A model generated the notes under the pieces. The model searched no databases. It saw only the letters and a program-made list of their open reading frames with translations, and was not told the DNA's origin. Made by a program: the position numbers and the translations under genes. Shown one piece after another: positions 31,900-32,260 of a stretch of DNA of 41,465 nucleotides. The stretch lies in the IMG/VR virus record IMGVR_UViG_2917881069_000006; one strand, 5' to 3'. Origin of the DNA: a virus. Its lineage: Duplodnaviria; Heunggongvirae; Uroviricota; Caudoviricetes. Within the stretch, counting starts at the first letter, position 1; every line of letters starts with the position of its first letter.

Positions 31900-32042
31900 A
31901 GTATCACCTCATCAGGTTAACCATCACCACCAACGACGCCAATCGACAGGTGGTGAACTGTGCAAGGTTGGCGTAACCGGCTACTCAAACCCGGCCCTTC
32001 CGAAGAAGCCCTCACACAGCCCACCATAATTTGGGCGTAACC

Positions 32043-32075
32043 GCGCTTAGCGCATAAAAAACCGCTTAACGCGGT
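32043..32075 (-). terminator. intrinsic terminator upstream of the Bro-N-like gene
   Basis: Stem ACCGC-gttaa-GCGGT followed by TTTTTTAT on the minus strand, adjacent to the palindrome GCGCTTAGCGC. Confidence 0.55.
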
Positions 32076-32260
32076 ATGCGTTGAGTAGTGTTCCGGGACG
32101 CCAATCCCGTGTGCCGATTTTGCGGCAACACAAAGAATTAGCCCAGTGAATGGTGGCGGTCAACTGCAGTCATTCATTCTCATAATGTGATCACCATCAC
32201 TCAACACGTTCCAGAAATCGCTCTATCATACTGACTTTAAACAGTTTTTAGGTGTTAAGT

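Follow-up and report, generated by a model that had tools for sequence, protein, structure and literature searches.

An orphaned and most likely decaying c4/IsrK-type RNA control unit upstream of an antirepressor pseudogene in a lambdoid prophage

Between ren and the nin genes, the lambdoid prophage analysed here carries a non-coding segment that is very probably an immunity-I type phage RNA control unit, comparable to c4-icd-ant of P1 and isrK-orf45-anrP of Gifsy-1, which has been orphaned and is most likely a decaying remnant. The element is of an already known kind, common in E. coli prophages, and since the controlled gene is broken, it represents an ordinary, probably decaying, copy of this RNA switch. 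The window (i.e., the whole analysed stretch of 41,465 nucleotides) contains a nearly complete prophage with cII, O, P, and ren of the early-right operon on the minus strand, to which rightward transcription corresponds. Family membership, structure, complementarity, covariation, and the pseudogene state of the downstream gene are established directly from the sequences.

A covariance-model search against Rfam, as suggested in the initial annotation, decides the identity of the segment: isrK (RF01394; 54.8 bits at 32127..32055, a small margin over the gathering score of 50) and C4 (RF01695; 67.5 bits at 32031..31946 over the full model length 1-87, gathering score 45) follow each other in tandem on the minus strand. 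The model c4-a1b1 (RF03163) reaches 32 bits at 32140..32090, below its gathering score of 46.7, and overlaps the 5' part of the isrK match. The remaining matches in 31400-32800 at E values up to 10 (snR78, mir-44, the rnk leader, and others) lie far below their gathering scores and are regarded as chance hits. In the same search, the c4 of P1 obtained 68.8 bits and that of Gifsy-1 69 bits; in score, the c4 of the window is therefore on a par with the family's founding member. Both characters previously proposed for the segment, a short terminated minus-strand transcript and a structured leader rather than coding sequence, thereby receive a name: the former corresponds to the isrK match, a small RNA ending at the terminator already noted, and the latter to the C4 match, which is situated in the Bro-N leader. 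The principal structure (a 17-bp stem with two hairpins, 32031..31946) had not been mentioned, nor had the family names and the pseudogene state of the downstream gene.

The organization corresponds to that of both families. As in isrK, two 5' hairpins precede a Rho-independent terminator (according to the terminator scan, the minimum free energy fold, and covariation), and the unit is situated upstream of a 36-aa ORF and an antirepressor gene, the latter being a pseudogene here. As in the C4 family, a downstream target (b2, on codons 2-4) lies at the translation start of the antirepressor gene. The positions of all elements are given in Table 1.

Table 1. Features of the RNA control unit and its surroundings (window positions)
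Feature	Position	Strand	Description
Putative promoter	32135..32163	minus	-35 TTGACC 32163..32158, 17-nt spacer, degenerate -10 TAATTC 32140..32135; read from sequence
IsrK-like short RNA	32055..32129	minus	Equivalent of P1 a1/b1 leader; Rfam isrK
IsrK hairpin 1	32127..32112	minus	Loop CAAAAU
IsrK hairpin 2	32109..32094	minus	Followed by linker and intrinsic terminator
a1 UUGGCGU	32098..32104	minus	Loop of IsrK hairpin 2; complementary to a'
b1 CUACUCAA	32081..32088	minus	Between IsrK hairpin 2 and terminator; complementary to b'
Intrinsic terminator	32055..32075	minus	Stem 32075..32061 and U-run 32060..32055; terminator scan, helix 3 covariation
Inverted repeat GCGC-TTA-GCGC, GCGCTTAGCGC	32043..32053		4 bp around TTA; spacer between terminator and c4; incidental
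c4-type antisense RNA	31946..32031	minus	17-bp closing stem, UUCG hairpin, hairpin 2 (b' loop), single-stranded a' joint
b' UUGAGUAG	31981..31988	minus	Loop of c4 hairpin 2; position matches P1 b'
a' ACGCCAA	31968..31974	minus	Single-stranded c4 joint 3' of hairpin 2; position matches P1 a'
36-aa ORF	31917..32027	minus	Starts at conserved AUG in c4; positional counterpart of Gifsy-1 orf45
a2 UUGGCGU	31936..31942	minus	Directly 3' of c4; same place as P1 a2
Antirepressor start	ATG 31899..31897; SD GAGG 31910..31907	minus	
b2 CUACUCAA	31888..31895	minus	Codons 2-4 of antirepressor ORF
5' remnant of Bro-N/P22_AR_C antirepressor gene	31544..31899	minus	Aligned to E. coli S21 and phage PhiR26_1
ybcK (large serine recombinase) cassette	29794..31544	minus	AT-rich; replaces 3' part of antirepressor gene

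Concerning coding content and composition, the initial annotation had described 31900-32260 as free of ORFs and richer in GC than its flanks. According to the ORF list, no ORF of at least 60 aa overlaps this segment; the longest ones lying wholly within it, both on the minus strand, comprise 38 aa (32163..32047) and 36 aa (32027..31917), and two ORFs of 49 aa and 43 aa, which start or end near 32250, touch just its upper edge. The higher GC content is likewise real (0.51-0.54 across 31900-32199 vs. 0.31-0.36 in 32200-32700 and 0.28-0.41 in 29700-31500), whereas the proposed extent has to be corrected: the patch spans 31544-32142, takes in the Bro-N gene fragment, and is ordinary phage DNA of about 50% GC with an AT-rich insertion on either side. 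Positions 32143-32260 form part of the upstream insertion, except for the putative -35 hexamer.

This upstream AT-rich insert (32143-32794), situated between ren and the RNA unit, contains two plus-strand ORFs (32252..32401 and 32403..32648), namely a hydrophobic ORF of 49 aa and an open frame of 81 codons that lacks a normal start and exhibits a weak match to the WYL domain (E 0.002, below the Pfam cut-off). Part of the insert (32143-32420) yielded no match in 5426 complete E. coli genomes. In relatives, the place between ren and the RNA unit is occupied by PD-lambda-1 or by a TagO-like gene; since its content differs among relatives, this place appears to be a variable slot for accessory or defence functions.

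The terminator-like stem-loop with a T-run, formerly noted on the minus strand, is real. It is the single terminator-like site detected by the terminator scan in 31300-33100, and its pairs covary in relatives; the U-run comprises 6 T in the window vs. 7 in the relatives. More generally, the IsrK fold consists of three helices, which among 61 relatives are paired in 95.4% of the cells, with compensatory changes at 12 of the 17 pairs. The palindrome reported close to the terminator is present as well, but it is not kept as a feature in the relatives, which read GCGCTAAGCAC on the minus strand; because of this lack of conservation, GCGCTTAGCGC was ruled out as a functional element.

Concerning the promoter, the putative sequence upstream of the IsrK-like RNA may be presumed to be active. 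At the position of its -10 box (TAATTC), the relatives possess TATATT, TATAGT, or TATGGT, 7-9 nt ahead of hairpin 1. A consensus promoter scan returned no minus-strand promoter at 32135..32163.

The c4-type RNA folds with a minimum free energy of -39.3 kcal/mol, corresponding to a z-score of -4.1 on the minus strand vs. -1.2 on the plus strand. Among 44 distinct sequences, its 27 pairs are formed in 99.7% of the cells, compared to 29-51% in slid controls, and 14 pairs have changed on both sides; as the search pattern prescribed helix 3, this helix carries no information on covariation. The conserved and covarying structure in homologous loci, the absence of which had been named as a finding that would speak against a structured RNA, is thus present.

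The two antisense elements of c4, a' (7 nt) and b' (8 nt), are each exactly complementary to two same-strand sites, of which one precedes c4 and the other follows it. The 8-mer CUACUCAA occurs three times in the 41-kb window, always inside the RNA unit, and the pattern TTGGCGT-N5-35-CTACTCAA, for which 0.01 occurrences are expected by chance in the window, is found solely within the unit. The energies of the duplexes that a' and b' would form with their sites were also compared with those of shuffled loops; in three of the four pairings, 13-14% of the shuffles were equally good. As shuffled loops were not discriminated, duplex energy was dropped as evidence, and the claim of pairing therefore rests on position and covariation.

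Covariation was studied by a pattern scan of viral contigs, which yielded 120 loci with 84 unique segments. The scan pattern had fixed hairpin 2 and most of a', such that the a1 column, invariant in the 61 relatives, carries no information on covariation of a'. For b', 23 sequence variants of the c4 loop were found, and both b1 and b2 change along with it: the longest exact complement of a variant's own b' loop measures 7.3 nt on average upstream and 8.5 nt downstream, vs. 4.7 nt and 4.5 nt in non-cognate pairings. In 22 of the 23 loop variants, b2 starts between -4 and +19 nt from the start codon of the next ORF, the Shine-Dalgarno sequence of which it usually abuts. This three-way covariation among b', b1, and b2 is the strongest support for a presumably functional pairing.

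Two c4-type units about 2.5 kb apart (5731-5767 and 8195-8232) were encountered in one IMG/VR contig (L055), one being of the window's type and the other about 75% identical, so that two switches of this kind can coexist in one phage.

The unit leads into a gene that is no longer intact. A deletion of 1 nt in a G-run (31710-31712, plus strand) is found in the antirepressor remnant, such that the ORF ends at 79 aa (premature stop at 31662..31660), and homology to E. coli S21 and phage PhiR26_1 spans 32142 to 31544 only. Pfam identifies Bro-N and P22_AR_C on the intact 200-aa homologue and nothing on the 79-aa fragment. In relatives at 93-94% identity, among them S21 and PhiR26_1, a Bro-N and P22_AR_C protein of 200-202 aa follows directly after the leader. 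Of 5426 complete E. coli genomes, 308 contain the module at an identity of at least 80%. The ORF was readable as far as a stop codon at 35 other loci of the window's b' type, and at 33 of them it is intact with 196-205 aa; the exceptions are L028 and L085, the latter possessing the same frameshift as the window. In most of the more distant relatives, an Icd-like ORF comes first, the order known from P1, and one encodes a KilA-N protein.

The arrangement in which the ybcK cassette replaces the 3' part of the gene was also looked for elsewhere. Neither its junction nor that of the upstream insert is spanned in any of the 5426 complete E. coli genomes, and exact-pattern scans of species-representative genomes with a 35-mer of the upstream AT-rich insert and a lineage-specific promoter 23-mer gave no match. 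The sole viral contig with the same arrangement is L085 (IMG/VR), which is equivalent to 29000-32842 of the window at 98.6% identity. In E. coli ML35 (L123, 3462-5371), it is the 3' (P22_AR_C) part of the antirepressor gene that comes after the same ybcK cassette. Both ybcK arrangements share a stretch of 59 bp (31602..31544 in the window, 5313..5371 in L123), and the two are therefore not related by a single simple insertion.

The closest described counterparts are the immI regions of P1 and P7. The c4 RNA of P1 is released from its leader transcript through processing by RNase P, pairs with a2 and b2, and blocks translation of icd; with icd blocked, ant remains unexpressed and the C1 repressor active, and c4 represses ant in trans. 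The P1 record annotates promoters, a1, b1, c4 (a misc_RNA of 77 nt), a2, b2, and icd in this order, and the Rfam search gives c4-a1b1 and C4, then icd and ant. Both P1/P7 immI and the window exhibit a promoter, a1/b1 hairpins, a terminator-like hairpin, c4, a2, and b2 at a translation start in the same order. They further share the c4 fold, with b' in the loop of hairpin 2 and a' in the single-stranded joint 3' of it, as read from the P1 sequence, and an antirepressor as the regulated gene.

Despite this likeness, there are several differences between the two. P1 has icd between c4 and ant, whereas the window lacks an Icd-like ORF and its antirepressor gene follows directly after c4; icd and its translational coupling belong to the P1 operon and are not characteristic of the RNA family as such. 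Icd-like ORFs (NF033153) exist in P1 and in many other relatives. In the window, b2 covers antirepressor codons, in P1 the Shine-Dalgarno sequence of icd. Neither a' nor b' has the sequence found in P1. The window's unit is hosted by a lambdoid prophage, that of P1 by a plasmid prophage; in addition, the window is without a C1 operator, and its target gene is a pseudogene.

Gifsy-1 shares with the window the terminated IsrK small RNA, read-through, a C4-family RNA, an antirepressor-like gene directly thereafter, a short ORF starting within the c4 part, and the location in a lambdoid prophage. Its Rfam order is isrK, C4, and antirepressor-like STM2616 (anrP), and its orf45/STnc1160 region is a C4-family RNA according to Rfam. 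There, the short IsrK stops at the terminator and the read-through RNA is translationally silent (PMC4825925) until IsrK opens it in trans, which allows translation of orf45 and, subsequently, anrP (Hershko-Shalev et al. 2016, PMC4825925). In lysogens, IsrK and STnc1160 reach high expression levels (PMC7067206). The Gifsy-1 unit is situated downstream of Q (antQ), whereas that of the window lies between ren and the nin genes, and its isrK score is higher (79.3 vs. 54.8 bits), since hairpin 1 of the window lacks its outer two pairs. As the antirepressor is inactivated in the window, the AnrP-AntQ cascade cannot run from this copy.

A more distant likeness exists to the CI RNA (seqA/seqC) of satellite P4, also a leader-processed RNA that pairs with one upstream and one downstream complementary site. 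Unlike the action proposed here, P4 CI brings transcription of the replication genes to a premature end. No match to a P4 family was obtained from Rfam in the window region searched (31400-32800). The IsrK authors themselves cite P4 CI RNA as a structural analogue (PMC4825925). Nothing specific was found in the literature on c4-like RNAs preceding the antirepressor genes of Stx phages.

From these systems, the following course of events would be expected for an intact unit of the window's type. Transcription would start near 32129 from a single promoter, and most transcripts would end at the terminator (32075..32055), giving an IsrK-like RNA of about 75 nt that carries a1 and b1. Read-through would run into the c4-type RNA (32031..31946), a2, b2, and then the antirepressor gene. 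Pairing of a' with a2 and of b' with b2 would shut off antirepressor translation, so that the prophage repressor would stay safe. Since the IsrK-like RNA carries the same target sites, it could compete for c4 or refold the leader and thereby turn translation on. Such a scheme would unite the P1 and Gifsy-1 accounts, with c4 and the leader sites keeping the antirepressor off and the IsrK-like RNA providing decoy sites; the published models differ in emphasis, P1 c4 being treated as a repressor and Gifsy-1 IsrK as an activator, and the combination proposed here is drawn by analogy. Transcription, RNA processing, and the direction of regulation are all inferred from P1 and Gifsy-1. Likewise by comparison with P1, mature c4 may be released from the window's copy by processing and may repress in trans, and Hfq binding and trans activation of downstream translation, as properties of isrK, might apply to the IsrK-like RNA.

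The present copy bears several marks of decay. At the foot of c4 hairpin 1, the window possesses a G.G mismatch (position 31996), which is the sole unpaired cell of this column among the 44 sequences. In the sister contig L085, the b' loop reads GUUUGUGUAG, an A-to-U change that is unmatched in b1 or b2, and a G-to-A change breaks a pair of the terminator stem. Between the window and L085, the RNA module exhibits 2.47 differences per 100 nt (6 differences in 243 nt, on which the argument depends), the dead gene 2.53, and the intact ybcK cassette 0.63; small as the numbers are, they point to a relaxed constraint on the RNA module. With the gene frameshifted and its 3' part replaced, the -10 box degraded, and one c4 pair broken, the unit is orphaned and most likely a decaying remnant.

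These observations also bear on the possibility that the unit is still made and kept for its action in trans, with c4 silencing the antirepressors of other phages of the same b' type, whether these infect the cell or already reside in it. P1 c4 does act in trans, a' and b' are intact in the window, the remainder of the prophage looks complete, and phages of the same b' type with a live antirepressor are common (33 loci; the module in 308 of 5426 E. coli genomes). However, the degraded -10 box, the G.G mismatch in c4, the mutated b' loop and terminator stem of the sister contig, and the drift of the RNA module at the rate of the pseudogene speak against it, and survival as a trans-acting immunity RNA is possible but unlikely. 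If it applied, a trans-acting c4 would protect the resident prophage from induction, as an immunity RNA without a target gene of its own. It is more doubtful still that orphan c4/IsrK units serve as stand-alone immunity devices which recognise phages by their b' "address", the loop variants forming an RNA-encoded set of specificities; in that case, the b' variants (23 in our sample) would correspond to lambdoid-phage immunity specificities, a much wider range than the P1/P7 pair.

The segment could alternatively act in cis only, as a structured leader or attenuator of the Bro-N gene that yields no distinct stable small RNAs. Taken as a whole, the 250-nt leader folds at -100.2 kcal/mol (z-score -3.8), with long-range pairing of the IsrK part with the a2 region, and resembles in this respect the inactive "structure A" of Gifsy-1 (PMC4825925). 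Nevertheless, stable short RNAs exist in both relatives that have been studied, namely c4 (77 nt) in P1 and IsrK and STnc1160 in Salmonella (PMC4825925; PMC7067206), and the terminator is conserved and covarying, which renders a purely cis-acting leader quite improbable.

That the functional products are small proteins, encoded by the 36-aa ORF (32027..31917) or the 38-aa ORF (32163..32047), is hardly credible: the AUG at c4 positions 5-7 (AUGG) is nearly invariant across the 44 c4 sequences and orf45 of Gifsy-1 is translated and couples translation to anrP (PMC4825925), but the 38-aa ORF spans promoter and terminator, neither ORF has a Pfam match, orf45 is conserved in nucleotide and variable in amino-acid sequence according to the Gifsy-1 work as summed up in PMC12197685, and the compensatory changes on both stem arms of c4 and IsrK indicate selection at the RNA level, on which ground small-ORF coding was rejected. 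At one locus (L016), the frame from the c4-internal AUG runs without a stop into the downstream icd-like gene.

Two further elements of the prophage were observed outside the unit. An ORF of 118 aa on the plus strand (29321-29677), with a lipoprotein signal-like N-terminus (weak LPAM_1 match), occupies a short AT-rich patch that separates ybcK from the nin genes, on the strand opposite to that of the phage genes, and looks like a small moron. On the minus strand, 26214-26606 gives a full-length match to the Rfam cspA thermoregulator (158 bits, gathering score 78), indicating a prophage-borne cold-shock protein gene with a long structured 5' UTR near the Q/lysis region.

To return to the decaying control unit, its recognition is of relevance for annotation: a formerly enigmatic non-coding patch turns out to be a pair of curated RNA families left blank by protein-centred annotation. 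No RNA feature was annotated beneath the match in any record examined, and the E. coli matches to a query with the RNA part only carried no annotated features of any sort. Since units of this type control an antirepressor, they bear on the ease of prophage induction, a control that is defunct in the present copy. Finally, the joint change of the b' loop and both of its targets in 23 variants extends a principle established for P1 and P7 and may be of interest with respect to phage heteroimmunity.
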